Source: an uncultured Gammaproteobacteria bacterium (GTDB lineage: Bacteria; Patescibacteriota; Microgenomatia; CAZETR01; Amesbacteraceae). From it: DNA of 64,000 nt. The DNA lies in contig CAZIVL010000001.1 in the NCBI GenBank assembly GCA_964543035.1, forward strand, positions 122,000-185,999. The letters are read 5' to 3'. The notes beneath the pieces are model-generated. The model had not been told where the DNA came from. It ran no database searches and worked only from the letters and a program-made list of their open reading frames with translations. Shown here piece by piece: positions 46,264-63,789 of this stretch. How positions within the stretch are numbered: position 1 is the stretch's first letter; each line of letters begins with the position of its first letter. The position numbers were made by a program, and so were the translations under genes.

Positions 46264-46267
46264 AGTC

Positions 46268-47200
46268 TTACCAAAATTTAAAGCCTTTAAGGATTCTCTC
46301 GTAGACCCGATATGGTTTAGGGCCGACTAGACCCTTACCGTTGATAAAAACCAGAGGGGTGCCATAAATATTTGTTTTTTCAAGTTGTATCCGTCTTTCA
46401 ATAACCGCGCTTTGCGTCTCAGAAGATTGACTGCAGGTATTTATAGCTGCAACATCATACCCAACGTCTTCGAGAATCTCATCGACAAATTCCTTCTTAG
46501 CTATGTCTTCCTTGCTATTTTCGAACAATTTATCATTGAATTGCCAGTATCTTTCCTTATCCTGCTGATAGGCACAATAACCGATTGGCAAGAGATACAA
46601 TGTTTCTTCCTTTACTGGGTAGTGGGCAAAAGTGTAGTTAACTTGGTTTTCGGAAATAAACTGCTTTATCAATGGATACGCTTTTCTAGTGTAATCGCAA
46701 CTGTAGCAACCAATGAGTACTACAGAGTCTTTTGAACCTTTATCAATATTTGGAAAAAGACTCAAATCAACACCTTTAAGGGTAACTTTGCTTTCATCTC
46801 CTACTCCATCCGAACAACTACCGCCAGTTTGAGAAACTTTATTATTTTCACCTTTAGGGTCAAGGGCGCAAAATCCTGATTTATTTAGGCCATTACAACT
46901 TCCATACATGTAGTAGTTGTATAAACCTTTCCCTGTCCAGAAAATGCTGGCCACTGTGGTTAGGAATAATATCCAAGACAGAAGTTCAAAGTGTCTGTTG
47001 ACGACTCTGGCTGCCACCTGAGAACGGGAAAGGAGCGTTCCCACCATCCGAGCTTTCATCTTTTCTTTAAACCCCGTAGTACACGGACGTAGTGTTATTC
47101 GGCGAAAAACACAATCAAATGCCTCCTTGGCCAACTGCCTGTGTGAGGCACTAAATATGCTGATAATTGATAAGGCGATAAACGCTAAAATGCAAAACAT
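46268..47200 (-). CDS. Membrane-anchored DsbA-like thioredoxin-fold protein (CxxC = CYSC)
   Basis: Two N-terminal TM helices, Cys-rich juxtamembrane segment, thioredoxin domain with CYSC. Confidence 0.6.
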   Translation of the reverse strand: MFCILAFIALSIISIFSASHRQLAKEAFDCVFRRITLRPCTTGFKEKMKARMVGTLLSRSQVAARVVNRHFELLSWILFLTTVASIFWTGKGLYNYYMYGSCNGLNKSGFCALDPKGENNKVSQTGGSCSDGVGDESKVTLKGVDLSLFPNIDKGSKDSVVLIGCYSCDYTRKAYPLIKQFISENQVNYTFAHYPVKEETLYLLPIGYCAYQQDKERYWQFNDKLFENSKEDIAKKEFVDEILEDVGYDVAAINTCSQSSETQSAVIERRIQLEKTNIYGTPLVFINGKGLVGPKPYRVYERILKGFKFW

Positions 47201-47202
47201 AA

Positions 47203-48399
47203 TTAGAGAACGCTTAATACTTTATGTAATTCTTTAACAAAAACTTCTGCTTCATCAAGAGTGTTATAAAAATAGACCGATGCCCGCACCGATCCGGGGA
47301 TTTCCCTGTCCGCAAACCAGGAATGTACGCAGTGTTGACCGGAGCGAACCATAATCTGTGAGGAGGCGTCAAGCATGAGAGCGATCTGATGATGGTCTTT
47401 GTCCGGAATATAAAAAGACACAATTCCGCCTCTTTCTTTGAAATCAGCCGGACCGATAATAAACAGATTGGGAATTCTCCGAAGTTCCCCAGTTATATAT
47501 TCATTTAACACTTGCTCCTTCTTTTGTATTTCGGCAAATCCAATCTTTTCCAGATATGAAGCCGCCTCACCTAATCCGATAATTCCTGCATAATCCTGCA
47601 GTCCTGCCTCAAACTTTTCAGGCGAAGGGAGAAACTCGCACGATTCATAAGTGGATGAGGAAACGGTATCACCACCGACTAAAAATGGCGACAATTTCTC
47701 CAAGAGCCCATATTTTCCGTAAAGGACTCCTGTACCAGACGGACCAAGCATCTTGTGGCCCGAGAATGCCATAAAATCAACATCCAGCTTTTGGACGTCT
47801 ATTGCTTGATGCGGAACAGCCTGAGCACCATCAAGAAGCACTAAAGCACCATGTTGGTGTGCCAAATGGATAACTTCGGCAGCTGGAATGCTTACACCGT
47901 CCAGATTTGAGGTCATGCCAAGAGCAACCAGTTTTACTCCCTTCTCAAGAGCTTTCTTATACGCTTCCATATCAAACGTGTTATCTTCGAGTGAACGGAC
48001 AATCCGGTGAGCAGTCCCGATTTTGTTGCGCAGAATCTGCCAGGGAATAAGATTGGAGTTGTGTTCCTTATCAGAAGTTAAAACAATATCGCCTTCTTTG
48101 AAGGCTAAGCTATTAGCTACCAGATTAATACTCTCAGTAGTATTACGAGTAAATACTATTTCCTCTTTTCGTTTTGCGTGTAGGAATTTAGCTATCTGTG
48201 TGCGTGCTTCATCACATTTTTGAGTGACCTTTGCTGCCAGATGATGGTTACTCCTGCCCCCGCACGCAGAATAATCTCGGTAATATTCAGTTATCGCATC
48301 AATGACCGATTGGGGACGCAAACTCTGACAGGCATTGTCAAAATAAATTTCTTCTTTTGAAATTACCGGAAAATCCTGTCTGATTTTTGTAATATTCAT
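47203..48399 (-). CDS. Cysteine desulfurase (class V aminotransferase, SufS/CsdA-like)
   Basis: PLP lysine in FSGHKMLGPSG; catalytic Cys in RSGQHCVH. Confidence 0.8.
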   Translation of the reverse strand: MNITKIRQDFPVISKEEIYFDNACQSLRPQSVIDAITEYYRDYSACGGRSNHHLAAKVTQKCDEARTQIAKFLHAKRKEEIVFTRNTTESINLVANSLAFKEGDIVLTSDKEHNSNLIPWQILRNKIGTAHRIVRSLEDNTFDMEAYKKALEKGVKLVALGMTSNLDGVSIPAAEVIHLAHQHGALVLLDGAQAVPHQAIDVQKLDVDFMAFSGHKMLGPSGTGVLYGKYGLLEKLSPFLVGGDTVSSSTYESCEFLPSPEKFEAGLQDYAGIIGLGEAASYLEKIGFAEIQKKEQVLNEYITGELRRIPNLFIIGPADFKERGGIVSFYIPDKDHHQIALMLDASSQIMVRSGQHCVHSWFADREIPGSVRASVYFYNTLDEAEVFVKELHKVLSVL

Positions 48400-48401
48400 A
48401 A

Positions 48402-50306
48402 TTAGTTTTTCTGGTAACCAAAATTAAATAATCTCAGACTGTTGACGACTACTAGGACGGTAACTCCTACATCGGCAAAAATGGCTAAAGCAAGACTGCT
48501 CTTTCCCGCTAGGGCCAAAAATAGAAAGATGGCTTTAACCGCGATAGCCGCACCGGTATTTATCCTAATCGTACTGCCTGAAACTTTGCCTAATCTGACT
48601 AGAAAGGGTATTAGCCCCAAGTTGTTATTCATAAGAGCTATATCGGCATTCTCAACCGCCACCTCTGAACCGATCGCCCCCATGGCAATGCCGACAGAAG
48701 CCGTTGAAAGTGAAGGCGCATCATTGACCCCGTCACCCACCATCGCTACATCTTTGTATTTGGTGACCAGATTTTTAAGCTGGATTACTTTCTCATCCGG
48801 TAGGAGTCTGGCGTGGACTTCATCAATACCGACTTCCTTAGCAACATATGAGGCTGCTGAAGCATTATCTCCGGTAAGAATTGCTGTTTTGACTTTTAAT
48901 TGGTGCAACTCCTTAATGGTAGAGGAGCTCTCGGGCCGGATTTCATCAACAATCCCGAGAACTCCTTTAATTTTTTTGTCGTCAGTGATAATAATAGCGG
49001 TTTTGCCTTCTTTTTCGAACCGCTCAACAATATCAACTGTTCGTTTATCTACCTTATGTTCTTCCATCACAAACTGAAGGGTCCCGATACAATGATGCTT
49101 ATCCACACACACCAGACATTCGCCTGAAATACCTTTTCCCATAATCGCTTTAAAGTTGGCATACTCGTGGTCTTTGATATCAGGGAAATTTTTCGAGCTT
49201 TCAACAATGCTCCTAGCAATCGGGTGTTCGGAAAAAGCCTCGGCTCCAGCTACACAAGCCAGAAGTTCAGCCTTCGTGTAACCGTTTAGAGGAATGACAT
49301 CGGAAACTACGGGTTCACCCTTGGTGAGGGTTCTGGTCTTGTCGAAGGCAATTGCCTTGACTCTGCCCATCTCTTCTAAAAACTGACCGCCTTTGATAAG
49401 AATTCCACGCTTTGTGGCATTGCCGATGGCTGAAAAGATAGTTATAGGAGTGGATATAACCAGGGCACACGGACAAGCAATCAAGAGGATTGTTAAGCTC
49501 TGGGCAAACCAAGGAGTAAACGGTTGGCCAAAAAAAAGAACAGGTATAGCTGTCAGGAAGAGCGCAAGCACTAATACTCCAGGGGTATAGTAAGAAGCAA
49601 ATTTTTCAATGAATCTAGCAGCCTGTGACTTACGCTCAGCCGCCTGAAAAGTCAAATCAACAATTTTGGCCAGTGTCGTATCTTTGGATACTTTAGTAAC
49701 TTTGATTTCCAAGTAGCCTTGGCTATTGAGTGTTCCAGCAAATACCGGCTCTCCTTCATATTTATTTTTCGGCAATGGCTCCCCGGTAATCGAGCTTTCG
49801 TCTACCAATGATTCACCTTTAATGACAACTCCGTCCAAAGGGATGTAGTCACCCGGTTTGATCACAACAATATCGTTAATGGCAATTTTCTCAATAGGAG
49901 TTTTGTTTTCTTGTCCTTTCAAAAGTGCGGCTTTAGGAGCTTTTTCCACTAGCTCTTCTAAAGCACTCTGGCTTCTGGTAATGCCGAACTCCTCCAGAGC
50001 CTCACTGACCGCAAACAGGACAATAATAATGACTGCTTCTTCGAGTTCTCCCAGATAGACTGCACCAAAGGTGGCCACAGTCATGAGTAAATTGATATTT
50101 GAGAATTTGAGTCTTGCAAGACTTTGTAGCCCACCAATAATTACTTCCCGGCCGAAGAAAAAGATGATGGCGGCAAATAAGGGATATTCGATAAATGCGG
50201 GTAAGTGAATGGAAAAAAGGGACAGAATCTCAAGAGGTATGATCAGAAGCAAAGTGGCAGCTAGCCGCTTGAACTTGGTTTCTTTAAGAATTTCTGAAAT
50301 AAGCAT
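48402..50306 (-). CDS. P1B-2-type (Zn/Cd/Pb) P-type ATPase lacking an N-terminal metal-binding domain; DKTRT in place of DKTGT
   Basis: CPC, TGEP, GDGVNDAPSL, TM7 N-x7-K and TM8 ADVG features; DKTRT checked in the DNA (gacaagaccagaacc). Confidence 0.8.
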   Translation of the reverse strand: MLISEILKETKFKRLAATLLLIIPLEILSLFSIHLPAFIEYPLFAAIIFFFGREVIIGGLQSLARLKFSNINLLMTVATFGAVYLGELEEAVIIIVLFAVSEALEEFGITRSQSALEELVEKAPKAALLKGQENKTPIEKIAINDIVVIKPGDYIPLDGVVIKGESLVDESSITGEPLPKNKYEGEPVFAGTLNSQGYLEIKVTKVSKDTTLAKIVDLTFQAAERKSQAARFIEKFASYYTPGVLVLALFLTAIPVLFFGQPFTPWFAQSLTILLIACPCALVISTPITIFSAIGNATKRGILIKGGQFLEEMGRVKAIAFDKTRTLTKGEPVVSDVIPLNGYTKAELLACVAGAEAFSEHPIARSIVESSKNFPDIKDHEYANFKAIMGKGISGECLVCVDKHHCIGTLQFVMEEHKVDKRTVDIVERFEKEGKTAIIITDDKKIKGVLGIVDEIRPESSSTIKELHQLKVKTAILTGDNASAASYVAKEVGIDEVHARLLPDEKVIQLKNLVTKYKDVAMVGDGVNDAPSLSTASVGIAMGAIGSEVAVENADIALMNNNLGLIPFLVRLGKVSGSTIRINTGAAIAVKAIFLFLALAGKSSLALAIFADVGVTVLVVVNSLRLFNFGYQKN

Positions 50307-50347
50307 AGTTTAATTGTACCGCGTAATGGTTTCATAGATCGATACAT

Positions 50348-50812
50348 TTACTCTTGTCTGAGATCCCCAATAAAGAGCTTTTCCAGCTGTGTTATAGCTT
50401 GTGCAGGATGCGGCCCTTTATTATTTGTCGGTCTATCATTAAATAAGGTTGTGGCATCTTTTCCGCAACCAGCAAGAACAGCCTTCCCTCCCGGGTGATT
50501 GGGAATAAACTCAGTAACGTCGTAGACTTTTCCTTCAATTGCCAGCCAGCAATCTGTCTCTAAATTATGTGTGGCAATTTCTTCAAGCGTATATGTTTTT
50601 GTGGCTGGTGTGGGGCTGCTAGAAATTTGAGATTCAACTCGATTCTTAGTGGTATCTGTATTTTGTGAAGGAGATGATAGTACAGGTTTTCTATTTGAAA
50701 ATAATAAAAATCCTCCACCCACCAGCAGAATGCCAATTATTACGACACCCATAACTACGGAATTTTTTGATTGCTTAGATTGATTATTTTGTTCGGTCTT
50801 ATCTGGATCCAT
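50348..50812 (-). CDS. Membrane-anchored cytochrome b5-like heme-binding domain protein
   Basis: HPGG motif within a YTLEEIATHN...VYDVTEF...HPGGK b5 core; N-terminal TM helix. Confidence 0.6.
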   Translation of the reverse strand: MDPDKTEQNNQSKQSKNSVVMGVVIIGILLVGGGFLLFSNRKPVLSSPSQNTDTTKNRVESQISSSPTPATKTYTLEEIATHNLETDCWLAIEGKVYDVTEFIPNHPGGKAVLAGCGKDATTLFNDRPTNNKGPHPAQAITQLEKLFIGDLRQE

Positions 50813-50827
50813 TTATTTCGCCTCCAT

Positions 50828-51952
50828 TTAGCAATCAGTTCCTAAGCCACCCACACAATTTTCAGTAGGTGGTTTACCCCGTTCTGGGCATTTTTCTGAA
50901 TAAACACAGGCTCTGTCGGTTATTTCTGATAACTGCTTGTCAGTTATCTCGCTAGCTGTTGCGCCAAAACTCATAACAATCCTGTCCAGATCTTTAAATT
51001 CGAACGCTCTCCAATTTCCTGCTTGTTTTTTTCCGTTTACATACCAACTAACTTCAGACGGGAAGTTTGCTTTCCAGGAGTCAATGAGCTGACCTAATGT
51101 AACACCGGTCTTATGTTTATGAATTACTTCTTCGGTATCTTTGTGTGAATGAATGTCTGGGTCTTTCTCAAAATAATCCGGATTGTCCTGGAGTAACACT
51201 CTCTTTCCATTCACATACAAAGCGAAATCGGCATGCTCGTGCACTTTCTCACCTGTCGATTGACCAGAGGGCTTAGGAGCTTTAAGAATGGCTGCATTGA
51301 TAAAGGTCTTAAAGTCCTCCGGAGTTTTGGGATTAGGGATTTTATCACCATTGAGAAAAAACGTTGGCGTGCCGGACACTCCCAATTTGGTGCCGGAGTT
51401 TTTATCCCGCTCAACCCTGTCTTTCACCTCTTTTGAGGCAACGTCTTTTTTGAACTGGTCCATATTCAAGCCGATTTGCTGAGCATAACCTTCAAATATT
51501 TTTGGGTCTGCAGCCGGTTTTTCTCCCCAGTTCTTCTGCTCTGCAAAGAGCTTATCATGCATTTCCCAGTATTTGCCCTGTCTGGCAGATGCTTCAACCG
51601 CAAGAGCAGCAGGTAAACCGTTTTTATGTCCAGGAAGCGGGAAATAGCGGTTGACAAAGCGAACGTCAGTTTTGAACTCTTCTGCCAGTTGTTTTACGAG
51701 CGGGTAATATGCACCACAAGCTTCACACTCAAAATCAAGATACTCGATAAGTGTTACGGATGCCTCTTTGTTGCCTTTAATGTAGTCATCAGGAACAACC
51801 TCTAATAATTTTTTCTGATCATCGGAGACTGGAGCAGAAGCTGAAGTAGGAGAATTTGAGGAACCCATCTTACTAGCAAAAAATACTCCCCCAATGAGAA
51901 GAACTACTGTAGCAATGATAATGCCGATAATAAATTTTTTGTCGCCACTCAT
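50828..51952 (-). CDS. DsbA-like thioredoxin (CEAC) with His-rich and Cys4 C-terminal extension
   Basis: TM anchor, LDFECEAC thioredoxin motif, C-terminal HEH..HSHKD..HKHK and C-x5-C-x11-C-x7-C. Confidence 0.6.
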   Translation of the reverse strand: MSGDKKFIIGIIIATVVLLIGGVFFASKMGSSNSPTSASAPVSDDQKKLLEVVPDDYIKGNKEASVTLIEYLDFECEACGAYYPLVKQLAEEFKTDVRFVNRYFPLPGHKNGLPAALAVEASARQGKYWEMHDKLFAEQKNWGEKPAADPKIFEGYAQQIGLNMDQFKKDVASKEVKDRVERDKNSGTKLGVSGTPTFFLNGDKIPNPKTPEDFKTFINAAILKAPKPSGQSTGEKVHEHADFALYVNGKRVLLQDNPDYFEKDPDIHSHKDTEEVIHKHKTGVTLGQLIDSWKANFPSEVSWYVNGKKQAGNWRAFEFKDLDRIVMSFGATASEITDKQLSEITDRACVYSEKCPERGKPPTENCVGGLGTDC

Positions 51953-52005
51953 AAAATGTTATTTTACTATGTTTTGTAGTAATTAGGAAGCCATTGTATG
52001 AGCTT

Positions 52006-52209
52006 CTATTTATCCCCCTTTTTCTCACCGCGCATAAAAAACGCCATAGCACCGCACATAACAGTACACCCCAAAAGAGGTGCTGCTGCTATTAAACCGG
52101 CAATGCCAATAGCAGGAACGAAAATAAGTAATGAGACAATAATAACTCCCAAAATAAGAAGAACTTTTGGATTTAGACATCTCCTACATGAATGTAATAA
52201 TTTATTCAT
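52006..52209 (-). CDS. Small Cys-containing membrane protein (CRRC, GCTVMCG), start overlapping the copA stop (ATGA)
   Basis: Start ATG at 52207-52209 overlaps the ATPase stop at 52206-52208. Confidence 0.35.
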   Translation of the reverse strand: MNKLLHSCRRCLNPKVLLILGVIIVSLLIFVPAIGIAGLIAAAPLLGCTVMCGAMAFFMRGEKKGDK

Positions 52210-54497
52210 ATTCTCTGCGTCCTTAATCGTAACGAGTTTGTGACCACCGAAACACTACTAAATCCCATTGCAGCTCCAGCAATTGCGGGGTTTAAAAGAA
52301 TACCGAAAAATGGATACAATGCTCCAGCTGCAATTGGAATACCAATGACATTATAGAAGAATGCCCAAAAGAGGTTCTGCTTGATAATACTCATCGTTGC
52401 TCTAGCTAACTTTACCGCTTTTGGTAGTTTAGAAATATGTCCCCCTAAAAGCGTTATCCCTGCTGACTCAATTGCTACATCGGTTCCTGTCCCCATCGCA
52501 ATCCCCACATCAGCTGTAGCCAAAGCTGGCGCATCATTAATGCCGTCACCCACCATTGCCACTTTATAACCTTCTTTTTGGAGTTTCTGAATTTCACTGG
52601 CTTTGTCTCCTGGTAAGACTTCGGCGATGACTCGATCTATACCTACTTGTTTAGCGATGTGCTGAGCAGTTCTTTTGTTGTCTCCTGTAAGCATTGCGAC
52701 TTTAATACCTTGCTTGTGAAGCTCCGCCACTGCTTCTTTTGCATCGTCTTTGATGGTGTCAGCAATACCAATGTAAGCAATAACGTGCTTCCTGTTCATG
52801 AAGACTACTGGTGTTTTCCCTTGTGAAGCAAACTTTTTAATCATTTCTTCATCAATTTTTACTTTGAGATCATCAACCAACTTAAGATTACCAGCATAAT
52901 ACTCAGTATCATCAATACTTCCCTTTAGCCCTTTACCTTCAATTGCCTCAAAATCTTTTACTTTATGGAGGCTAATTTTTTCATCCTTAGCTTTTTCAAC
53001 GACTGCTTGGGCTAGTGGATGTTCAGAATGGCTTTCTAGTGAAGCGAGGAGTTGCAAAATATCTTTCTCTGAATGAGAGCCAATTGCCTGAATATCAGTC
53101 ACTTCCGGTGCCCCTTTAGTAATCGTTCCCGTTTTATCCATGACAACAAAGTTGACCCCATTAAACTTTTCTAGACTTTCAGCATTCTTAATCAAGATGC
53201 CATTCTGAGCAGCTTTGCCAACACCGACAATAATAGCGGTAGGCGTAGCGAGACCCATTGCACATGGACAGGCAATGACCAGAATTCCCACAAAACTCAA
53301 AATACCGAGCGTTAGTGCCTGGGAAAATGGCATGAATTGAACACCAATCACCAACCAAAGTATTAATGTAATAACTGCCAGGACCAACACCGCTGGGACA
53401 AAAATGGCTGACACTTGATCGGCCATCCGTTCAATCGGTGCTTTGGATCCCTGAGCCTCCTCAACCATTTTAATGATTTGCGAAAGCATGGTATCACTGC
53501 CAACTTTAGTAACTCTAATCTGCAATGAGCCTTGTTTGTTAATGGTCGCTCCGATAACAGTATCCTCTGGTCCTTTATCTACCGGAATAGGCTCACCGGT
53601 GATCATCGACTCATCAATAGAGGATTTGCCTTCGATAATGACTCCATCCAAGGGAATCTTGGTTCCAGGTTTCACGAGCATAATATCGCCAACTATAACT
53701 TGATCGATGGGTAATTCCACTTCCTTGCCATCTCGAAGAATGAGAGCATTTTTGGCCTGGAGTCCTAAGAGTTTTTCTATGGCTTCACCAGTCTTTAACT
53801 TCGAGCGAGCTTCGAGGAATTTCCCGAGGGTAATAAAACCAATAACAACAATAACGACGTCATAATAATTTTGCTGGGTATTAACATAAGGAGCCAGCAC
53901 TTTATCAAATGCAGTTACACTAAAGCTGTAAAGGAAAGCCACCAACGTTCCAATCCCTACAAGCGTGTCCATATTCGCCACACGATATTTTATAAAACGG
54001 ACGATTCCTTGAAGATATGGAACCCCAATGACAAACATTGTATAGGTGGCAAAAATCGGCAAAAGATGATGGAAAAACTCCATGATGGCTTCCGGCATCT
54101 CTGGCCATAACCGTAGAGGGTCAGCTCCTATTTCCCAGGTCATGACAAAAATGCTAAAGGCAACAAAAGGCATGGCAATCTGAACGTGCTTTTTTAGCTT
54201 TGAGAGTTCCTGGAGTTTTTGCTCTTTTGCAGTTTGGTCAGAGGAAACCGGCGACATATCATGGCCGGCATGAGGATTGGGTGGATTTTCTAAACTATAC
54301 CCAAGTTTTTGAACCTGGTCATTCATTTGGGAGAGGTTGACCTTGTCAGCGTCGAATGAAACTTCGGCTTTTTCTGTACCGTAATTAACGTTGCAAGAAA
54401 CTATACCATCCAGTTTTTCAAGTTTGCGCTTGATAATGCTGGCGCAAGATGCGCAGTGCATCCCTTTAACTGGAAATGTTTGTTTTATCTCTCCCAT
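52206..54497 (-). CDS. copA: Cu(I)-translocating P1B-type ATPase with a single N-terminal HMA domain
   Basis: [40 protein letters not shown]. Confidence 0.85.
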   Translation of the reverse strand: MGEIKQTFPVKGMHCASCASIIKRKLEKLDGIVSCNVNYGTEKAEVSFDADKVNLSQMNDQVQKLGYSLENPPNPHAGHDMSPVSSDQTAKEQKLQELSKLKKHVQIAMPFVAFSIFVMTWEIGADPLRLWPEMPEAIMEFFHHLLPIFATYTMFVIGVPYLQGIVRFIKYRVANMDTLVGIGTLVAFLYSFSVTAFDKVLAPYVNTQQNYYDVVIVVIGFITLGKFLEARSKLKTGEAIEKLLGLQAKNALILRDGKEVELPIDQVIVGDIMLVKPGTKIPLDGVIIEGKSSIDESMITGEPIPVDKGPEDTVIGATINKQGSLQIRVTKVGSDTMLSQIIKMVEEAQGSKAPIERMADQVSAIFVPAVLVLAVITLILWLVIGVQFMPFSQALTLGILSFVGILVIACPCAMGLATPTAIIVGVGKAAQNGILIKNAESLEKFNGVNFVVMDKTGTITKGAPEVTDIQAIGSHSEKDILQLLASLESHSEHPLAQAVVEKAKDEKISLHKVKDFEAIEGKGLKGSIDDTEYYAGNLKLVDDLKVKIDEEMIKKFASQGKTPVVFMNRKHVIAYIGIADTIKDDAKEAVAELHKQGIKVAMLTGDNKRTAQHIAKQVGIDRVIAEVLPGDKASEIQKLQKEGYKVAMVGDGINDAPALATADVGIAMGTGTDVAIESAGITLLGGHISKLPKAVKLARATMSIIKQNLFWAFFYNVIGIPIAAGALYPFFGILLNPAIAGAAMGFSSVSVVTNSLRLRTQRI

Positions 54498-54511
54498 ACA
54501 TATTTTTTACT

Positions 54512-54727
54512 TCAGGCCGCTATAACTACCTCGTATTCAAGTTTTTGTATAACAGCAATGATTTGGTCATGGTGGACTTTATCAGGATCGTATGTAACGA
54601 CCGAAATCTGTTTTGCATAGTGAGTTTTTGCCTCTTTTACACCATCCAAATCCCCCAACTCAAAGTCAATGTTGATGGCACAACTCGTACAGTGCATGCC
54701 CACGATTTCTAAAGTTATTGTTTTCAT
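54512..54727 (-). CDS. copZ: HMA-domain copper chaperone (CopZ-like)
   Basis: MHCTSCA motif in a 71-aa ORF. Confidence 0.7.
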   Translation of the reverse strand: MKTITLEIVGMHCTSCAINIDFELGDLDGVKEAKTHYAKQISVVTYDPDKVHHDQIIAVIQKLEYEVVIAA

Positions 54728-55779
54728 ACGCCTTTATCTTGAACGACATTTATCTCTCCACGAAACATACCCATGCTGCACATAAAGGCAAGTGGACCAG
54801 GAGTTGTGGGAGCAGTAAATTCAAGTGTGTCCGATTGACCAATCGCAACAACCCGCTGCAAACCAAGCTTGGGAACTGTTAGTGATTGCGTACATCCGCC
54901 TCCACCTTGATTGACAATGTTGAATTTGACCTTTGATCCAGCTCTAACATTAACAACAGCCGGTTCTGTCCGATAACCGTTTTGGGTGATAAAAATAGTC
55001 GCCTCCTTCACCGTAGCTGAATTAGTTGTAGCTCCAGCTACCCGACCTTCATCACAAAAACTAATCGTGCAAGTAATACTGGTTAAGACATTTTCAAAAG
55101 TGAAGTTACTGCCACTAAGTGCCAAAGCTCCATTAAAGTTATAGAGGGCTACCAAAATAATTGCTGCAGCTGCCACCTTGTTAAAGGTTCCACTGAGTGA
55201 ACTGCCTAGTTTCCGTGCCGCATACCCAAGAAGGAAAAATAACGGAGAAGTTCCTAGCATAAAAACAAACATGGTAGTTGCTCCGGCAAGAGGAGAGCCG
55301 GTTGAAATAGCATAAGCCATCATTGCTTGTGTTGCTCCACAGGGAATGAGAACCGTCATAGCTCCAAGGAGTGCCGGACCAAAGACAGCTTTACTCTTTG
55401 ATTGATTGCGTACTAATCGTGTTAAAAATTTGGGTGGCTGAATTACAAAGTAGCGAAAAATCGGGTGAACCTGAAGAAGATTAAGCGCAGTACCGACCAT
55501 AAACACTACTGCTGCAAATTGGAGGAGGACGCGGGCAGAAAGTGAAAGCTGAAATACTGAACCAAGAGATCCTAAGAGTAAACCAAGAATGGTATAAGCC
55601 ACCAATCGAGTAATTAAAAACGAAAGAATGGGGAGAAGATGTCCAAATCGTTTTGCGTCTTCTTCAAGCTTATTCTCTTCCTGCTGAGCAATTGAGCTGG
55701 CGAGAAGTCCACCCTGAACAGCTAGACACGTTAGTCCACCTGCAAATAATCCTGTGATGAAAATTGAGAGTATGTCCAT
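54724..55779 (-). CDS. DsbD_2/CcdA-like Cys-bearing TM domain fused to one cupredoxin-like C-terminal domain (C-SMGM)
   Basis: GGLTCLA and LIPCGATQAM TM cysteines; C-terminal FMCSMGMFRGEI. Paralog of 26186-27928 without the fused HMA. Confidence 0.55.
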   Translation of the reverse strand: MDILSIFITGLFAGGLTCLAVQGGLLASSIAQQEENKLEEDAKRFGHLLPILSFLITRLVAYTILGLLLGSLGSVFQLSLSARVLLQFAAVVFMVGTALNLLQVHPIFRYFVIQPPKFLTRLVRNQSKSKAVFGPALLGAMTVLIPCGATQAMMAYAISTGSPLAGATTMFVFMLGTSPLFFLLGYAARKLGSSLSGTFNKVAAAAIILVALYNFNGALALSGSNFTFENVLTSITCTISFCDEGRVAGATTNSATVKEATIFITQNGYRTEPAVVNVRAGSKVKFNIVNQGGGGCTQSLTVPKLGLQRVVAIGQSDTLEFTAPTTPGPLAFMCSMGMFRGEINVVQDKGV

Positions 55780-55801
55780 AGTTCATATTCCAAGTTAACC
55801 T

Positions 55802-56581
55802 TTATGATTGCAATGCCTTATCAATCATCGGCTTGACTTGTTCAAAAGGTAAGGCGCCTGGAACAAGCTGGGTATCACCTTTTGCGTTGATAATAATAGT
55901 TCCTGGTGTACCGGTTACACCCTCAGCTGTTCCCTTGGCCATCTGATCCTTGACTTTTTGAGCCATTTCTCCAGAGTCTAAACACTGTTTGAACGATGAT
56001 TCATTAAGTCCCAACTCTTTGGCCAACGGAGTTAATTTGTCCAAGGCAAATCCAGTCCCATTAGAGGTGGTGCGTTCAAAGATAGCATCTGTATATTTCC
56101 AGAATGCTTCATTTCCACCAATTTTTCCAGCACACTCTGATGCTTCAGCTTCTTTTTGTGCATTGGCATGGAAAGAAAGCGGATAATGGCGGTATACCCA
56201 TTTCACCTTATCCCCGTATTCTTTCATAACCTGTTGCATCGTCGGGTGAAAACTTTTGCAGAATGGACATTCTAAATCTGAATACTCTACCATTACAACT
56301 TTGGCATTTTTGTTACCTTTGTACCAATCCTTATCGGTTACTTCCGGTTTTTTGGTTGCCACCTGGGGTTGAGGTGCGCCTGCAGCAGCCGGAGCACCCG
56401 CAGCTTGATTAGTACCTGTCGTGGTTGTTCCAGCCACCGCAGCGCCCTTTTCGAGATACTTGACTTTGGTGTAGAGAGATCCAATAGCAAACGATGCACC
56501 AATAAGAACTAAAACGAGAATAATGCTGAAATTACCTGAAAGCATATTTTTAAGAGGAGATAAATTTTTTTCTTCAGTCAT
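55802..56581 (-). CDS. Membrane-anchored DsbA/BdbD-like thiol-disulfide oxidoreductase (CPFC)
   Basis: TM anchor, Gly/Ala/Pro-rich linker, LECPFCKSFHP. Confidence 0.75.
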   Translation of the reverse strand: MTEEKNLSPLKNMLSGNFSIILVLVLIGASFAIGSLYTKVKYLEKGAAVAGTTTTGTNQAAGAPAAAGAPQPQVATKKPEVTDKDWYKGNKNAKVVMVEYSDLECPFCKSFHPTMQQVMKEYGDKVKWVYRHYPLSFHANAQKEAEASECAGKIGGNEAFWKYTDAIFERTTSNGTGFALDKLTPLAKELGLNESSFKQCLDSGEMAQKVKDQMAKGTAEGVTGTPGTIIINAKGDTQLVPGALPFEQVKPMIDKALQS

Positions 56582-56636
56582 AATGATTATTATAAACTAA
56601 TATTACTACAAAGTGTAGTAACTCTATAAACCAATG

Positions 56637-57710
56637 TCAATAGGAAACTGACGTAAATTGTACTGGTGAATAAAGCCTTGAAGACTGAGGCGCCGAAATT
56701 GGAGGGGTCTGCATACAAGCATTAGTACATGCTCCACTTGGGTCAACACAAGCCATAACAGCATCTTCTCCCATGTCATGAAACTCGATAGCCTGTACTG
56801 GAGCTATTGTCAAACCACCCAAAATTGCCACGGACAGTATACTTATAACTACATTTCTTATTGAGAGGCACGGTGAAAATATTGTCTTTTTAGTAATGGT
56901 CCGGATACGAGTTTCTAATGTCTGAGCATCCATAAAACTTGGTACTATGGCTAAAGCCGGATAGAGATCATAATGCAGAAGTTTTGAAAGAACTGATCGG
57001 ACATGCTCCTTTCCATCATCCATAGCTGTAATTGCCGCATTATCAGCTTTAATTTCTCTTTGTGTTCTATACATTGCTATCAAATCCGTAAGAAGTGGGA
57101 AAAAAGGAAATAATGATTGAGTGAATACTGCAAATAGCATGATTAACGTATCATGATGCTCTAAATGATATTTTTCGTGTCGCAATACTGCTTCTATTTC
57201 ATCCGAAGTTGTAATTGCGAGCATTTGAGTAGAGATGTAGATTTTTGGCCTGGTAAATCCGAAACAAAAAGCGCCCACCTGTTCATCTTGTATAACCCGA
57301 ATTTTATTAACAAGGTGTAATTTTTTCGCAAGCGGCAGAATACTATCTTTCTCTACGATCTTTTCTTCAAGCGACTTATGTTGCTGAAAAACTCTCAGTA
57401 CTGTTAAAAAAACTTTTACTATTATATAGAGAGTCAAAGCAGCAAAACCCCACATCATAAAAAACTTAATATTCAAGCGTATTGGTTGCATCAAGACAGA
57501 CTGAAGCATTTCTCGGCAGTAATAGACAGTATTATGCAGAAGAAATGGAATGTATTTAGCACAAGCATTATATAGGAGTGTTCCTAACACAACAAAAATC
57601 CCTAAAAAAAACCACGCGTAGCTATTTATCTTTGTCATATATTTGTTCTTGTAAAAGTTTAAGAAAATACTCTTTTTTCTCTTTTGGCAAACGTTCGATG
57701 GATTGAGCAA
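56637..57710 (-). CDS. BlaR1/MecR1-type M56 zinc metallopeptidase with a Cys-rich C-terminal tail instead of a beta-lactam sensor (start probably the internal Met near 57638)
   Basis: Four TM helices, HEKYH(LEHHD) zincin motif, and a C-terminal TM helix plus ACVDPSGACTNACMQ. Confidence 0.65.
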   Translation of the reverse strand: MLNPSNVCQKRKKSIFLNFYKNKYMTKINSYAWFFLGIFVVLGTLLYNACAKYIPFLLHNTVYYCREMLQSVLMQPIRLNIKFFMMWGFAALTLYIIVKVFLTVLRVFQQHKSLEEKIVEKDSILPLAKKLHLVNKIRVIQDEQVGAFCFGFTRPKIYISTQMLAITTSDEIEAVLRHEKYHLEHHDTLIMLFAVFTQSLFPFFPLLTDLIAMYRTQREIKADNAAITAMDDGKEHVRSVLSKLLHYDLYPALAIVPSFMDAQTLETRIRTITKKTIFSPCLSIRNVVISILSVAILGGLTIAPVQAIEFHDMGEDAVMACVDPSGACTNACMQTPPISAPQSSRLYSPVQFTSVSY

Positions 57711-58044
57711 AAGAAGCTAGGGCAGCATCGCCAAATGTTCCGAAGAATTTATCTAAAAGATTCCTCGCCATTTTTTGGCTAAATTCCTCTTTAGTTTGTT
57801 TTGGGGCAAAGACGACGGTAAAAGCCGAGGCATCTTTTTCAACTAACCCTTTTTCATGCAACCTTTCTAAAATCGTGGCAATCGTCGTATACGCAAGAGT
57901 CTTTGTTTTATTCGTCTCATCGGCCACTTCCCTAATGGTGCATTCACCCAATGCCCAGACAACATTCATCGTTTCCTGCTCTAGGTCGCTCAAGTTTTTC
58001 TGTGCCATACTACGTATTGTAGAAGGTTGAATGAAAAAAGACAA
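57622..58044 (-). CDS. BlaI/MecI/CopY-family winged-helix repressor
   Basis: TIATILERLHEKGLV penicillinase-repressor signature; precedes the M56 peptidase. Confidence 0.7.
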   Translation of the reverse strand: MSFFIQPSTIRSMAQKNLSDLEQETMNVVWALGECTIREVADETNKTKTLAYTTIATILERLHEKGLVEKDASAFTVVFAPKQTKEEFSQKMARNLLDKFFGTFGDAALASFAQSIERLPKEKKEYFLKLLQEQIYDKDK

Positions 58045-58060
58045 CCCAACGCATTATTCT

Positions 58061-58970
58061 CCGTAGAAATCCGGCATTGGGCATACAATTATGGAAATGC
58101 TCAATGCTACAAAGATTGTTCTTGCCTGGGAGTTGTATGAGTCTGGTATTTGTAAGGTGGATGTAGCCAAAAGGTTGGAGGTAAATCGAGATACGGTTCG
58201 AGTTTGGATTCAGGGAGTCCAAAAACATAGCCTCAACACATTTCTTGATTTGTATGCCTCTGCAAAAAAGGGTTCAAGACCCAAACGCCAGATTGATCCA
58301 ATTCTCAAACGGTGGGTTTGGGATATTCGTGAACGGGAGTTGGACTGCTGTGGTCAAAAGATAAACTACTTTCTGGAAAAAGAACGTGGGGTAAGTGTGT
58401 CCATTCCCAAGATTTACGAGATACTCGCTGAAAAGTATCAAATAAAAAGTAAATGGAAAAAGAATCAGGCTCTAGGACCGGTACCAGAGGCCCAAAAGGC
58501 ACGTGAGGTCATCCAGATGGACTCCATAGACTTTGGCGGGATATTTGCATTTACTGCGGTGGATATATTTTCTCGCGAAGCTGATGTCTTGTTACGACCA
58601 TCGTTAACTAGTCATGACGGACTAGTTTTCTTGGAAACGTGTATGCCTCGGAGATTTGATGGCCACAGCAAGTTAATCCAATCTGATGGCGGACCCGAAT
58701 TCAAAGATGAATTCAAAGAAAACGTTGGACAATATACCGATAGATACCGAATTTCTGCTGCATACAAAAAGAACGAGCAGGCATATATTGAGTCGTTTAA
58801 TAGAACAGTTAGAAAAGAATGTTTAGGTTGGAGTAAATACCACCCTGATCAAATCACCCAGCTTAACTACCTGGTAAACACTTTCCTTGAGCGGTATCAT
58901 TACCACAGGCCACATTTAGGTCTAGGATTAAGACCACCGCTTACCAAGTCCTAGTGCCGGATATTTACGG
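58061..58970 (+). mobile_element. IS481-like insertion sequence (single transposase, imperfect roughly 17-bp terminal inverted repeats)
   Basis: Left end CCGTAGAAATCCGGCAT versus reverse complement of right end CCGTAAATATCCGGCAC (14/17 match), bracketing the transposase ORF. Confidence 0.55.
58091..58954 (+). CDS. DDE transposase (rve integrase core, IS481-like) with N-terminal HTH
   Basis: DDE residues in QMDSID, QSDGGPEF and IESFNRT contexts. Confidence 0.8.
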   Translation: MEMLNATKIVLAWELYESGICKVDVAKRLEVNRDTVRVWIQGVQKHSLNTFLDLYASAKKGSRPKRQIDPILKRWVWDIRERELDCCGQKINYFLEKERGVSVSIPKIYEILAEKYQIKSKWKKNQALGPVPEAQKAREVIQMDSIDFGGIFAFTAVDIFSREADVLLRPSLTSHDGLVFLETCMPRRFDGHSKLIQSDGGPEFKDEFKENVGQYTDRYRISAAYKKNEQAYIESFNRTVRKECLGWSKYHPDQITQLNYLVNTFLERYHYHRPHLGLGLRPPLTKS

Positions 58971-58985
58971 AAACATATCGTTTAA

Positions 58986-60882: not shown

Positions 60883-61898
60883 GTACAACTCGCCTTATTA
60901 GTACATTTTGTGATTTAGTCCGGATCGACAGTCCATCGGGGCAAGAATCTGAAGTTGTCAAATTCATTTCAGAGGAGTTAAAAGAGTTAGGGATAAATTC
61001 AGAATCGGATGCGACTGGCAATTTGTTTGCTAGAGTTCCAGGAGTTGGTGACACAGTATTGTTATGTGCTCACATGGACACAGTAGAACCAGGAAAAAAC
61101 ATTCAGCCCAAAATCCATGACGACCATATAACCAGTTCAGGAGATACTATTCTTGGGGCAGACAACAAAGCCTGGATAGCAGCTATTATAGAAGCATTAA
61201 AGTCGACTCCGAAAAAAAAGACAAGGTCTTTGGAACTATTATTTACCACCCGCGAGGAGACCGATGGAGGAGTCAAAGAGTTTGACTGCCAGAAATTATC
61301 TGCAAAGACAGGCCTCATTGCCGACAGGGCAGCCCCAATTGGAACAATTGTCCTGTCATCGCCTTGGGTCACCGACCTTGTCTTTGAGTTTAGGGGAACG
61401 GCGACCCACGCGGCAGTTCCTGAAAAAGGGGTCAATGCTCTCACCAAATCGCTTTCAATATTATCGACCATTCCAGTAGGTCGCGTTGATTCAGATACGA
61501 CTATCAACATTGGGACAATCTCTGGTGGCACTGGAACAAATACTGTTCCAGATTTAGTAGTTGCCAGGGGTGAGATCCGTAGTTTTTCTAGAGAGTCTCA
61601 GGATACCTGGCTCAAAAAAATAAATCCCACTTCATCTCATCTCTATTGTCCAGGTTATACACATTTCACTTCCGATGCTTTTGTCAAAGATATTGTCAGA
61701 TTACATACACATCTCGGTATCAAGACCGATTTAGTCACTGCCCTCGGTGCCAGTGATGCCAATTTTCTAAATTCACAGGGGATTAAGGTCATAAACATAG
61801 GTTACGGTGCCGAAAACACTCATACAATCAGTGAGCGGATTGCAGTCAGTAGTTTAGAGAAACTATGCTCGCTTTTAGTTAAATATATTGTCTGTTAA
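60879..61898 (+). CDS. M20-family metallopeptidase (PepT/M42-like)
   Basis: LCAHMDTV and GADNKAW metal-ligand motifs. Confidence 0.65.
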   Translation: MSTTRLISTFCDLVRIDSPSGQESEVVKFISEELKELGINSESDATGNLFARVPGVGDTVLLCAHMDTVEPGKNIQPKIHDDHITSSGDTILGADNKAWIAAIIEALKSTPKKKTRSLELLFTTREETDGGVKEFDCQKLSAKTGLIADRAAPIGTIVLSSPWVTDLVFEFRGTATHAAVPEKGVNALTKSLSILSTIPVGRVDSDTTINIGTISGGTGTNTVPDLVVARGEIRSFSRESQDTWLKKINPTSSHLYCPGYTHFTSDAFVKDIVRLHTHLGIKTDLVTALGASDANFLNSQGIKVINIGYGAENTHTISERIAVSSLEKLCSLLVKYIVC

Positions 61899-63789
61899 AC
61901 TTATGGCCAATACTATGTCACAATCCCGGCTTTCAGAGATTAGGAATATCAGGTTGGATAGACTAAAAAAGCTTCGTGATCTGGGCATCGATCCATACCC
62001 TTCCAAACCATCTCAAGATTTCATCTCCACAGGAGGGGCCAGAAGACTCGAAGGTGAAAGTGTTTTTGTCGTCGGCCGGCTTAGATCATTTCGCGAGCAC
62101 GGCAATGTCATCTTTGCCGATCTAAGAGACGCCTCAGGTCAGATCCAACTCTTGTTCCAAAAGAAAACTCTCGAAGACAAATTTAAGGTTTTGAAACTCA
62201 TCGACTCAGGCGATTTCCTAGGTGCTGGAGGGACAGTCACGACGACTCAGTCGGGTGAGATCACCGTCGACGTCTCCCACTTTGAGCTGCTGGGCAAATC
62301 TCTTCGCCCTTTACCAGACGAGCTGTCAGACACCGAGGAGCGCTACCGTAAACGGTATCTAGATCTTCTTCTCGATCCCAGCGTTCGGACTCGTTTTGAT
62401 GCGAAGACAAAAATTTACAAAGAGACCAGAAATTATCTCGATTCTCTAGGTTTTTTTGAAGTCGAGACTCCCGTATTTCATCCATTATACGGCGGGGCCA
62501 ATGCCAAGCCATTTATTTCCCACATGAATGCCCTAGATCGTGACTACTATCTGCGCATTGCTTTTGAGCTGTATCTAAAAAGATTAGTAGTCGGCGGTTA
62601 CGACAAAGTGTATGAGATTGGAAGAGACTTTAGAAACGAAGGTATAGATCAAACTCACAATCCCGAGTTCACCATGCTTGAGTGGTACGAAGCCTATGCC
62701 GATTATCACCGGATCATGGATGTCACCGAAGGTTTGTTCAAGCATTTGGCTGGCGCCTTGTATGGTACGACCAAAATAAATGTTGGAGATCACGCCATCG
62801 ATATCGGCGTCAGCTGGCCCCGGATCCCCATGCAGACTCTGATCAAAGAAAAACTAGACTTGGATACAGATTCAAAAACCACAGAAGAGCTAGCTGCATA
62901 CTGCAAAAAAAATAATATTGCCTTAATTGGTGGGGAGACCAAGGGTCAGATTATTTTCCAGATTTTCGATGACCAGATCGCCGGGACTTTGATCCAGCCT
63001 ACTTTTGTCATCGATTATCCGGCGGATATCAGTCCCTTGTCCAAGCCACATTCAGATCGTCCTGACTGGGTCCAGAGGTTTGAAGGTTACATCGGAGGCA
63101 AAGAGATTGTCGATGGTTGGTCCGAGCTGACCGATCCCGAGATTCAAAGACAGCGCTTCGAGTTTGATGTCCAGGCGGTTCGAAAGGACAAAGAGGAGAT
63201 TCAGCAGACCGACGAAGACTTTTTGGAAGCTATGGAATATGGCATGCCTCCCATGGGCGGCATCGGCATTGGTATGGACAGGATTACCATGTTTTTTACC
63301 AATACCTGGACCTTCAAAGAGATATTACTATTCCCCACACTGAGGCCTGACAATGATGTGACTCCAAAGCAAGACTTCGATCGCAAATTAGTTGTGGTCA
63401 TTGATCCATCACTCCCCGCCTGGCAGATTATGAATACGTCCGCCCATATTTCCGCGTTTTTGGGCAACAAGATGACCACCAAATTTGATACTGGAAAGTA
63501 CTTTACGACCAAAGATGGTAAGAACCTGCCTCGCAATACTCAGTACCCGATAGTTACATTATCTGCGACTCAGTCTCAGCTGGCAGAATTGATATCGGAA
63601 GTCCGAAAGACAAATCTTTTGCACATAGGCTACGTCCCAGAGATGATGGAGACCACGGATGACAAAAAATTGGTCCAAATGTTGGGAGCCAAATCGAGTG
63701 ATGAAGTGACTTATGCCGGAGTTGGCATCTTTGGGCTGAAAAAAGAGGTGGATCTTCTGACCAAAAAATTCACTTTGTGGGGAAAATAA
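61888..63789 (+). CDS. lysS: Class II lysyl-tRNA synthetase with a roughly 135-aa C-terminal extension
   Basis: OB anticodon-binding domain, motif 2 (FRNEG) and motif 3 (GIGIGMDRITMFFT). The chain continues about 135 aa past the usual end (...FPTLRP). Confidence 0.85.
   Translation: MSVKLMANTMSQSRLSEIRNIRLDRLKKLRDLGIDPYPSKPSQDFISTGGARRLEGESVFVVGRLRSFREHGNVIFADLRDASGQIQLLFQKKTLEDKFKVLKLIDSGDFLGAGGTVTTTQSGEITVDVSHFELLGKSLRPLPDELSDTEERYRKRYLDLLLDPSVRTRFDAKTKIYKETRNYLDSLGFFEVETPVFHPLYGGANAKPFISHMNALDRDYYLRIAFELYLKRLVVGGYDKVYEIGRDFRNEGIDQTHNPEFTMLEWYEAYADYHRIMDVTEGLFKHLAGALYGTTKINVGDHAIDIGVSWPRIPMQTLIKEKLDLDTDSKTTEELAAYCKKNNIALIGGETKGQIIFQIFDDQIAGTLIQPTFVIDYPADISPLSKPHSDRPDWVQRFEGYIGGKEIVDGWSELTDPEIQRQRFEFDVQAVRKDKEEIQQTDEDFLEAMEYGMPPMGGIGIGMDRITMFFTNTWTFKEILLFPTLRPDNDVTPKQDFDRKLVVVIDPSLPAWQIMNTSAHISAFLGNKMTTKFDTGKYFTTKDGKNLPRNTQYPIVTLSATQSQLAELISEVRKTNLLHIGYVPEMMETTDDKKLVQMLGAKSSDEVTYAGVGIFGLKKEVDLLTKKFTLWGK

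Follow-up and report, generated by a model that had tools for sequence, protein, structure and literature searches.

A repressor-protease gene pair of Patescibacteria with a conserved cysteine tail: a candidate proteolytic switch for envelope metal stress

What do BlaR1-type membrane proteases detect when they carry no beta-lactam sensor, as is the case for about 94% of the M56 family (PMC13492132)? The question is raised by a gene pair on the minus strand of a 64,000-nucleotide stretch of a Patescibacteria genome (positions 122,000 to 185,999 of contig CAZIVL010000001.1; the window in what follows), which encodes a BlaI-family repressor and an M56 protease with a short, cysteine-bearing C-terminal tail. 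In this case the regulon points to a specific answer. Judging from sequence, we consider it fairly probable that the pair is a BlaI/BlaR1-type two-protein switch, co-opted for metal stress of the envelope with copper as the most likely metal, and that it operates by proteolytic derepression. The two genes and the relevant parts of the protease are:

57622 to 58008, minus strand: BlaI-family winged-helix repressor of 128 amino acids (aa), start ATG at 58008
56637 to 57638, minus strand: M56 (BlaR1-type) membrane zinc protease of 333 aa, start ATG at 57638
57165 to 57179, minus strand: HEKYH zinc-binding catalytic motif of the protease, residues 154-158, read from the sequence and invariant in 113 relatives
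57465 to 57557, minus strand: first outer loop of the protease (predicted), residues 28-58, at the position of the EL1 loop of BlaR1, bearing H35, Y39, Y40 and C41
56640 to 56789, minus strand: predicted extracytoplasmic C-terminal tail of the protease, residues 284-333, beginning IEFHDMGEDAVMACVDPSGACTNACMQ, described by conservation and an AlphaFold2 model

The pair had been recognized in an earlier note, which was made from the DNA alone, and Pfam matches identify both genes where the note placed them, with revised starts. The open reading frame (ORF) at 57622-58044 matches Penicillinase_R (PF03965; E = 6e-24, 85 bits against a cutoff of 22.6), and residues 4-113 of the repressor can be aligned with Staphylococcus aureus BlaI (1sd4). 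The ORF at 56637-57710 matches Peptidase_M56 (PF05569; E = 2.7e-17, 63.3 bits against a cutoff of 31), with a weaker match to M48. The starts of the longest ORFs, TTG 58044 for blaI and TTG 57710 for the protease, were both rejected because the family profiles and the called genes begin at the ATG codons; moreover, TTG 58044 is part of the -35 box of the promoter of blaI itself. The exact 128-aa repressor and the 333-aa protease are each found as called genes in the public protein collection. The protease gene starts within the 3' end of blaI, with an overlap of 17 nucleotides (nt).

The HExxH zincin core and the membrane helices that were noticed previously are indeed kept. In 113 full-length relatives (90% clusters, 33-100% identical, mean column identity 43%), residues H154, E155, H158, E195, D199 and R244 are 100% conserved; the above-cutoff domain match, the HExxH motif and the downstream Glu ligand together identify the protein as a member of the M56 family. 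A profile of 54 relatives was aligned with residues 104-324 of S. aureus BlaR1, that is, from the third helix to the last one. In the residue correspondence that we derived from this alignment, D199 matches D246 of BlaR1, and R244 is aligned with R293, the neighbor of R294, which is the salt-bridge partner of D246 (PMC9834060). The bond S234|F235 of the window protein is aligned with the autocleavage bond S283|F284 of BlaR1; in the family, the second position of the bond is occupied by I, L, F or M. The AlphaFold2 model of the protease (predicted local distance difference test score (pLDDT) 85.5, predicted template modeling score (pTM) 0.80) consists of a helix (6-34), a strand (38-40), a second helix (55-92), the protease domain, the last helix (260-278), a hairpin (281-298) and a short helix (303-310). 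By the BlaR1 alignment, the helix pair 163-176/182-205 of the protease domain is the re-entrant pair; the protein has three membrane-spanning helices and a re-entrant hairpin. The best Foldseek matches in the PDB are the cryo-EM structures of BlaR1, 8exp and 8exq (E about 1e-6, probability 1.00).

The repressor shows the complementary feature. Its bond S99|F100 lines up with the cleavage site N101|F102 of S. aureus BlaI, where the segment A-S-F-A-(E/Q)-S of the repressors is aligned with L-N|F-A-K-N, and F100 and S99 are conserved in 100% and 90%, respectively, of 64 repressor relatives. The P1' Phe is almost invariant in BlaI, which is cleaved directly by BlaR1 (PMC9834060); with a Phe at P1' of the predicted scissile bond in the linker/dimerization region, the window repressor falls into the protease-regulated BlaI/MecI subgroup. 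Thus, the pair has every sequence feature required for proteolytic derepression of the BlaI/BlaR1 type, and cleavage of the repressor by the protease is probable. Direct copper sensing by the repressor, as in CopY, was considered and rejected. The C-terminal CxCx4CxC metal motif of CopY (searched as CxC-x4-6-CxC) is absent from the window repressor and from all 64 relatives, most of which have a single Cys, and the repressor scores well under the NCBIfam cutoffs for CopY_TcrY, BlaI and MecI (44.3 bits against 121.95 for the CopY_TcrY equivalog TIGR02698). Because they lack the CopY motif, the repressor and its relatives are unlikely to sense metal themselves, so that the signal most likely enters via the protease.

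How the protease might receive a signal depends on what follows its last membrane helix. The Peptidase_M56 match stops about 85 residues short of the C-terminus, the Pfam search finds no transpeptidase or penicillin-binding domain in the protein, and about 50 residues occupy the place where BlaR1 has its penicillin-binding domain, in agreement with the short Cys-bearing segment described before. The suggestion that this segment stands in for a beta-lactam sensor is accurate as regards the absence of that sensor, but the absence itself is normal for M56 proteins: in a 2026 survey, only about 6% of roughly 15,000 M56 proteins have a transpeptidase domain, and the commonest architecture is the M56 domain with a short undefined C-terminus (PMC13492132). 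The protease scores 53.6 bits against the cutoff of 400 for NCBIfam blaR1_generic and does not qualify as a BlaR1/MecR1 sensor-transducer (NF000326, NF033109).

The family names ('BlaR1 peptidase', 'penicillinase repressor') are what speaks for a remnant of BlaR1, be it a degenerate system for beta-lactam or cell-wall stress or a truncated or misassembled gene. We consider this explanation extremely improbable. Apart from the lack of the transpeptidase domain and the low blaR1_generic score, the homology search retrieved 137 protease relatives, nearly all of them 300-340 aa long, and the same short length is shared by over 200 relatives from the WWE3 and Microgenomates lineages of Patescibacteria. 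The stop codon of the gene lies inside the conserved promoter of the next operon, where it overlaps the -35 box, so that revision of start and stop does not turn the protein into a full-length BlaR1, and truncation or misassembly was rejected on the strength of the conserved short length and the position of the stop codon. An exhaustive profile search yielded 354 cluster representatives at E <= 1e-30 among 45,834 M56-like proteins. Finally, a scan of related loci, with one genome per species (66 loci), found no beta-lactamase or penicillin-binding protein gene beside any of the operators described below.

The short C-terminus is a conserved feature. When searched separately, neither the tail nor the loop matches any Pfam family even at E = 10, which answers the call in the earlier note for a domain search of this part; both are conserved well above the mean of the protein. 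In the loop, K28 (97%), H35 (75%), Y39 (94%), Y40 (92%) and C41 (99%; codon 57516-57518) stand out, and in the tail and just before it, P280 (97%), V281 (92%), A283 (97%), E285 (92%), H287 (92%), D292 (91%), C297 (99%), C304 (88%) and C308 (87%), such that the motif PVxA-xExH-x4-D-x4-C is 91-99% conserved. The three tail cysteines of the window protein (56715-56750) lie within ACVDPSGACTNACMQ, residues 296-310. The spacing C-x5-C-x3-C, whose conservation in homologs the earlier note had proposed to check, recurs as C-x4-6-C-x3-C in 94 of the 113 relatives; with C-x4-7-C-x3-C, the count is 99 of 113 and, in a further set of full-length representatives at 50% identity, 79 of 107. At least one Cys is present within the last 65 residues of all 113 relatives and all 107 further representatives, so the tail is not a peculiarity of the window protein. 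C304 and C308 are always jointly present or jointly absent, and 11 of the 113 relatives have a single tail Cys.

The tail and the loop are placed outside the cytoplasm on the grounds of the BlaR1 alignment and of charge (basic residues before the last helix, an acidic tail); in BlaR1 itself, the EL1 loop binds the sensor domain (PMC9834060). A role of the tail as a metal sensor is a plausible hypothesis. The same conservation data include a hint in another direction, namely that the tail is not a sensor but a structural cap or a turnover element, with PVxA resembling a signal-peptidase site, and that the signal acts elsewhere, for example, as cytoplasmic metal on the protease domain or the repressor, or as membrane damage. 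The high conservation of P280, V281 and A283 (92-97%) directly after the last helix fits this explanation, as does the cleavage of BlaR1 by signal peptidase at the corresponding position (PMC9834060). Furthermore, the ligands proposed for PetP, the protease of the copper-responsive PetR/PetP pair, are in a loop and not in a tail (10.1101/2020.07.31.226407), and C125 of the cytoplasmic protease domain is 99% conserved. We nevertheless regard a non-sensory tail as decidedly unlikely given that conservation runs 25 residues past PVxA and singles out particular Cys, His and acidic residues, that the tail is modeled as a folded hairpin and helix (pLDDT about 75), and that the repressor is without a metal-binding motif. 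As an observation in its own right, the sequence P-V-Q/N-A (residues 280-283; 56790-56801) fits the -3/-1 rule for type I signal peptidase, which suggests that the tail might be shed like the sensor domain of BlaR1.

The nature of the signal can be approached through the genes that the repressor is predicted to control. The classical cop/bla box TACAnnTGTA has no match in the window, and this spacing was rejected in favor of an operator with a 3-nt center that was read from the spacer between the protease gene and dsbA and confirmed statistically. The spacer holds a perfect palindrome, TTACTACACTTTGTAGTAA, over the -10 box of a promoter of the form TTGACA-17 nt-TACACT. When up to two mismatches are allowed, the 17-bp palindrome TACTACAnnnTGTAGTA occurs five times in the window, where 0.14 occurrences would be expected, and this number was not reached in any of 100 shuffles that preserve dinucleotides. 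These sites are:

58008 to 58024, minus strand: O1, TTCTACAATACGTAGTA, two mismatches, overlapping the -10 box TACAAT (58016-58021) of the blaI promoter
56604 to 56620, minus strand: O2, TACTACACTTTGTAGTA, perfect, over the -10 box TACACT (56612-56617) of the dsbA-cop promoter
51965 to 51981: O3, two mismatches, followed after 12 nt by the second DsbA-like gene
45437 to 45453, minus strand: O4, TACTACAATTTGTAGTA, perfect, over a -10 box TACAAT (-35 box TTGCAT), upstream of the CDF/SPFH gene
36216 to 36232: possible fifth operator, two mismatches and a poor right half, between the ICMT-like methyltransferase gene and the third P1B ATPase gene; low confidence, with no clear promoter around it

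An inverted repeat of the TACA/TGTA type had been anticipated upstream of 58044. Such a palindrome is present at the blaI promoter (O1), but it is a weaker site with two mismatches, and the best copies are found at the dsbA promoter downstream of the protease gene and at two further clusters. The blaI promoter-like site is TTGTCT-17 nt-TACAAT, with the -35 box at 58039-58044. O1 ends on the first base of the blaI ATG, and the blaI mRNA is thus expected to be leaderless. In the dsbA-cop promoter, the -35 box, TTGACA, is located at 56635-56640. As expected for the BlaI/MecI/CopY family, the predicted repressor site is a TACA/TGTA-type palindrome that lies over regulated promoters, including the repressor's own.

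The same operator recurs in the related loci, which come from WWE3, Gottesman-, Woese-, Roizman- and Levybacteria and other Patescibacteria, the closest being a WWE3 genome with 61% identity. In these loci, 149 sites were detected in 822 kb, in contrast to 3-13 in mononucleotide shuffles (about 6 expected). Of these, 48 are upstream of blaI and 45 upstream of dsbA; the others precede genes for a second DsbA-like protein (DsbA2), DsbD_2/cupredoxin, CopA, four two-domain multicopper oxidases, a plastocyanin-like protein and a YtkA-like protein, and a few precede unrelated genes (an M23 peptidase, an HlyD-like protein, a hydrolase). A site matching O3 precedes the DsbA2 homologue in four loci (L001, L002, L006 and L013). 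Of 59 distinct related dsbA-promoter sequences, 57 have TTGAC at 14-15 nt before the operator, a fixed distance at which TACACT/TACAAT within the operator falls on the -10 position. In many cases, the first ATG comes 1-5 nt after the operator. More specifically, blaI and many dsbA homologues start 0-5 nt past the operator/-10 element without a Shine-Dalgarno sequence, which suggests that leaderless or near-leaderless transcripts are a conserved feature of the regulon.

The genes behind the operators of the window, assigned with Pfam and, for the O2 operon, also NCBIfam (the extent of the O3 cluster is based on Pfam and the ORF list), are:

52006 to 56581, minus strand: five-gene operon behind O2, with gaps between genes of -4 to 22 nt, made up of the next five entries
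55802 to 56581, minus strand: DsbA-like thioredoxin-fold protein with CPFC
54724 to 55779, minus strand: DsbD_2 membrane protein fused to a cupredoxin-like domain
54512 to 54727, minus strand: CopZ-like HMA protein
52206 to 54497, minus strand: CopA-type P1B ATPase
52006 to 52209, minus strand: 67-aa membrane protein
45478 to 51952, minus strand: six-gene cluster behind O3, made up of the next six entries
50828 to 51952, minus strand: second DsbA-like protein
50348 to 50812, minus strand: membrane-anchored cytochrome b5-like protein
48402 to 50306, minus strand: second P1B ATPase, without an HMA domain
47203 to 48399, minus strand: class-V aminotransferase/cysteine desulfurase-like protein
46268 to 47200, minus strand: membrane DsbA-like protein
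45478 to 46263, minus strand: 261-aa membrane protein without an assigned family
43871 to 45397: cation-diffusion-facilitator (CDF)/SPFH fusion behind O4

The DsbA-like and copper genes that were mentioned before as neighbors are thus all there, and the operator-marked regulon is composed of thiol-redox and copper/metal genes. The gene order of the O2 operon recurs in many related loci; judging by its spacing, the O3 cluster might be a single operon. The CopA protein has the combination CPC / YN / MxxSS, which we take to be the Cu(I)-pump signature of the P1B classification, whereas the second ATPase has CPC / K / DxG, presumably a pattern typical of Zn/Cd pumps under the same classification.

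The linkage between these genes is strong across the 66 loci. Where the contig leaves room, blaI adjoins the protease gene in 58 of 62 loci and dsbA follows it in 52 of 58. Among the 35 loci that extend 5 kb or more to both sides, blaI is adjacent in 33 and dsbA in 31, CopA is present in 27, DsbD_2/cupredoxin in 25, and at least one copper-related gene in 31. These counts also bring in the main rival of a metal signal, namely a thiol-disulfide (envelope redox) sensor, in which the redox state of the outer cysteines of the protease, set by oxidative folding outside the membrane, switches its activity, DsbA is the core output, and the copper genes are controlled along with it since copper brings about disulfide stress. 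The position of dsbA directly behind the protease gene and with the best operator, as in the 52 of 58 loci, is compatible with this scheme. So are the presence of DsbD_2 in the O2 operon and that of three DsbA-like genes in the operator-marked clusters of the window, of which one immediately follows an operator. The outer cysteines C41 and C297, both 99% conserved, and the co-occurrence of C304 and C308, as expected of disulfide partners, fit as well. However, operators also lie directly ahead of CopA, multicopper oxidase, plastocyanin-like and YtkA-like genes, CopZ and CopA within the dsbA operon are hard to explain by redox stress alone, and E285, H287 and D292 match the cysteines in conservation, suggesting a metal site rather than disulfides only. 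On balance, we find a primarily redox-sensing switch unlikely.

Under the copper or envelope metal reading that we prefer, the switch could work as follows. In the absence of the signal, dimers of the 128-aa repressor would occupy the 17-bp operator TACTACAnnnTGTAGTA and thereby cover the -10 box and the start site of transcription at four or more promoters of the window, namely those of blaI and the protease gene, of the dsbA-DsbD_2/cupredoxin-copZ-copA operon, of the second DsbA/cytochrome b5/P1B-ATPase cluster and of the CDF exporter. The protease would be a membrane zinc protease with a cytoplasmic active site and an outer face that is predicted to be formed by the loop HxxxYYC and a structured tail of about 30 residues, AxExH-x4-D-x4-C-x5-C-x3-C. 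Binding of copper or another thiophilic metal to the Cys, His, Asp and Glu residues, or copper-catalyzed oxidation, might shift the membrane helices and free the autoinhibited protease, which would then cut the repressor at the conserved Ser-Phe bond and so derepress all operons. The cleavage, the identity of the signal and the sensory role of the tail each enter this scheme as separate predictions. The earlier proposal of a proteolytic anti-repressor switch that senses thiol or metal stress through the cysteine tail is in line with the proteolytic features, the conserved tail and the metal/thiol regulon; the tail as the sensor, and copper as opposed to redox or another metal, are the parts of it that we would put more cautiously.

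Copper appears to be the most likely signal for several reasons. Operators directly precede genes for CopA, multicopper oxidases and cupredoxins; CopZ and CopA share the dsbA operon of the window; and proteins of the DsbA/DsbD type belong to copper defense, as in the Scs system, in which the DsbA-like ScsC binds Cu(I) tightly and protects against copper (PMC8900818). In addition, copper is the signal for PetR/PetP (10.1101/2020.07.31.226407), the sole pair of the BlaI/BlaR1 (BlaIR) type for which a signal other than an antibiotic is known. Entry of the signal from outside, via the loop and tail, is most likely since the repressor is without a metal site and the outer face of the protease is its most conserved non-catalytic part, rich in Cys, His, Asp and Glu.

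Several observations weigh on the other side. The most constant partner of the pair is DsbA rather than CopA, so that a thiol-redox signal fits this aspect of the data as well as copper does. The 11 relatives with a single tail Cys still adjoin copper genes; hence the CxxxC pair is not essential, and its candidacy as the indispensable sensor is weakened. The four extracytoplasmic cysteines could do no more than pair up in two structural disulfides, and the ExH...D residues suit Zn(II) or Cu(II) better than Cu(I). Lastly, the ATPase that, on the classification assumed above, looks like a Zn/Cd pump and the CDF exporter are both behind operators, which suggests that the signal may extend beyond copper to thiophilic metals in general.

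A bolder and rather improbable version of the mechanism treats the loop and the tail together as a minimal, previously undescribed extracytoplasmic metal/redox sensing module of about 60 residues, in which copper binding or copper-catalyzed disulfides between C41 and the tail cysteines would decide whether the tail is shed at PVxA and, hence, whether the repressor is destroyed. If this were true, the pair would bring copper export under a BlaIR-type regulator for the first time, and it could be the main metal-stress regulator of those WWE3 and Microgenomates lineages that carry it, with genomes of about 1 Mb.

Among the characterized systems, the closest parallel, compared here by description, is PetR/PetP of Synechocystis sp. 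PCC 6803 (slr0240/slr0241), which controls the plastocyanin/cytochrome c6 switch. As in the window, a BlaI/CopY-family repressor without the CopY copper site is followed by an overlapping M48/M56 protease gene without a penicillin-binding domain. Degradation of PetR requires the protease and copper: PetP, which is without a sensor domain, degrades PetR only when copper is present (10.1101/2020.07.31.226407), whereas for the pair in the window, metal-dependent degradation is our proposal from sequence. The PetR operator is GACN5GTC, compared to TACTAC-N5-GTAGTA here, with a common AC-N5-GT core (10.1101/2020.07.31.226407). PetP has four predicted helices, almost no C-terminal tail and, as proposed ligands, two conserved Met in the loop between transmembrane helices TM2 and TM3; the protease described here has three spanning helices, a conserved loop Cys and the conserved Cys/His/Asp tail. 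The regulon of PetR consists of petE, petJ and two small genes and does not include copper homeostasis (PMC10141476), unlike the regulon found here, with its copper export, multicopper oxidase and Dsb-type genes. The Patescibacteria pair has neither the GACN5GTC operator nor a petE/petJ regulon.

With BlaI/BlaR1 and MecI/MecR1 of S. aureus and Bacillus licheniformis, the pair shares the M56 gluzincin core and the re-entrant helix pair (PMC9834060), the position of the autocleavage loop with a hydrophobic P1' residue, the Phe P1' site in the repressor, and autoregulation through a palindromic TACA/TGTA-type operator over the promoter. It differs from these systems in that the protease has no penicillin-binding sensor domain and one fewer N-terminal helix, the half-sites of the operator are one base further apart (TACAnnnTGTA versus TACAnnTGTA), and the regulon is without a beta-lactamase or penicillin-binding protein gene. 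The commonest M56 architecture is also that of CenI/CenR of Clostridioides difficile and of mycobacterial BlaI/BlaR (Rv1846c/Rv1845c) (PMC13492132), compared to which the family described here has a conserved tail and a regulon that is indicative of one particular kind of signal. The CopY/CopR/TcrY repressors of Firmicutes belong to the same winged-helix family, use a TACA/TGTA-type operator and control operons of the copZ/copA type (PMC7253601). CopY, however, senses cytoplasmic Cu(I) itself, with its C-terminal CxC motifs and without a protease, whereas the repressor described here has no CxC motif, scores under the CopY_TcrY cutoff and is always paired with the protease. The likeness to the Scs/Dsb systems concerns the regulated genes and not the switch: among the output genes, a DsbA-like thioredoxin-fold protein is combined with a membrane protein of the DsbD/CcdA-like type beside copper genes. 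We know of no Scs genes that are under the control of a BlaIR-type pair.

Of the known copper sensors, CueR, CsoR and CopY detect the metal within the cell, and CusS/CopS belong to the two-component kinases. To our knowledge, copper-responsive proteolysis of a BlaI-type repressor is known only from PetR/PetP, which does not control copper detoxification. None of the literature that was searched describes a BlaIR-type system that controls copper export, or this Patescibacteria family. The family would thus link a PetR/PetP-type switch to genes of copper export, copper oxidation and disulfide repair, and it offers a short, conserved candidate sensing motif that can be mutated. For an uncultured, phylum-level group whose members cannot be grown alone, it also provides a regulon in which the architecture of operators and promoters is clear and transcripts are apparently leaderless.

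Several other features of the metal-related region, which spans approximately 33.7-58 kb of the window, are worth recording. The CDF transporter and the SPFH/Band-7 domain behind the perfect operator O4 are combined in a single 508-aa protein, an unusual fusion. The cytochrome b5-like protein is a predicted heme-binding protein encoded between a DsbA-like gene and a metal ATPase gene; the lineage that carries it is generally thought to be without respiratory chains. At the distal end of the region is the gene for a third P1B ATPase (33702-35957), whose N-terminus is rich in Met and His and whose CPD motif is unusual. It is accompanied by genes for an ICMT-like membrane methyltransferase (36261-36929), for a small secreted protein that is likewise Met/His-rich (37106-37381) and for a histidine kinase (37737-38744). 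In at least one related locus (L020), an ICMT-like gene identified with Pfam is divergent from blaI, and ORFs of similar size occupy the same place in several other loci.

Upstream of blaI, a small insertion sequence (58060-58971) encodes a 287-aa transposase with a helix-turn-helix domain and an rve/rve_3 integrase core (58091-58954, plus strand) and is bounded by 22-nt inverted repeats that are 82% complementary. Only 15 nt separate it from the -35 box of the blaI promoter. The core of this promoter looks intact, but transcription reading out of the element could alter the expression of blaI and the protease gene. Beyond it, 1.2 kb upstream of blaI, the segment 58986-59286 holds a tRNA-Glu(CTC) gene, followed by a 78-aa ORF without a family match that overlaps the 3' end of the tRNA. 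A tRNA-Glu(CTC) gene is also found about 6 kb upstream of blaI in a metagenome-assembled genome (MAG) of a related WWE3 bacterium (L008, 1707-1781), so the metal-gene region may be an island at tRNA-Glu(CTC) or a case of conserved synteny.

Some of the related contigs (L002, L009, L010, L045 and others) are labeled 'uncultured Gammaproteobacteria' or 'Pseudomonadales' and yet bear the Patescibacteria-type module; judged by their contigs of roughly 1 Mb and their gene content, these labels of the MAG records are probably wrong. Elsewhere in the window, the segment 8001-10000 has a GC skew of -0.35, an AT skew of -0.17 and a GC content under that of its neighbors, with a tRNA-Gln gene adjoining at 10322-10395. 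Finally, a lysyl-tRNA synthetase-like ORF (61888-63789) encodes 633 aa, with a C-terminus that extends about 130 residues beyond what we take to be the typical length of bacterial class II lysyl-tRNA synthetases.

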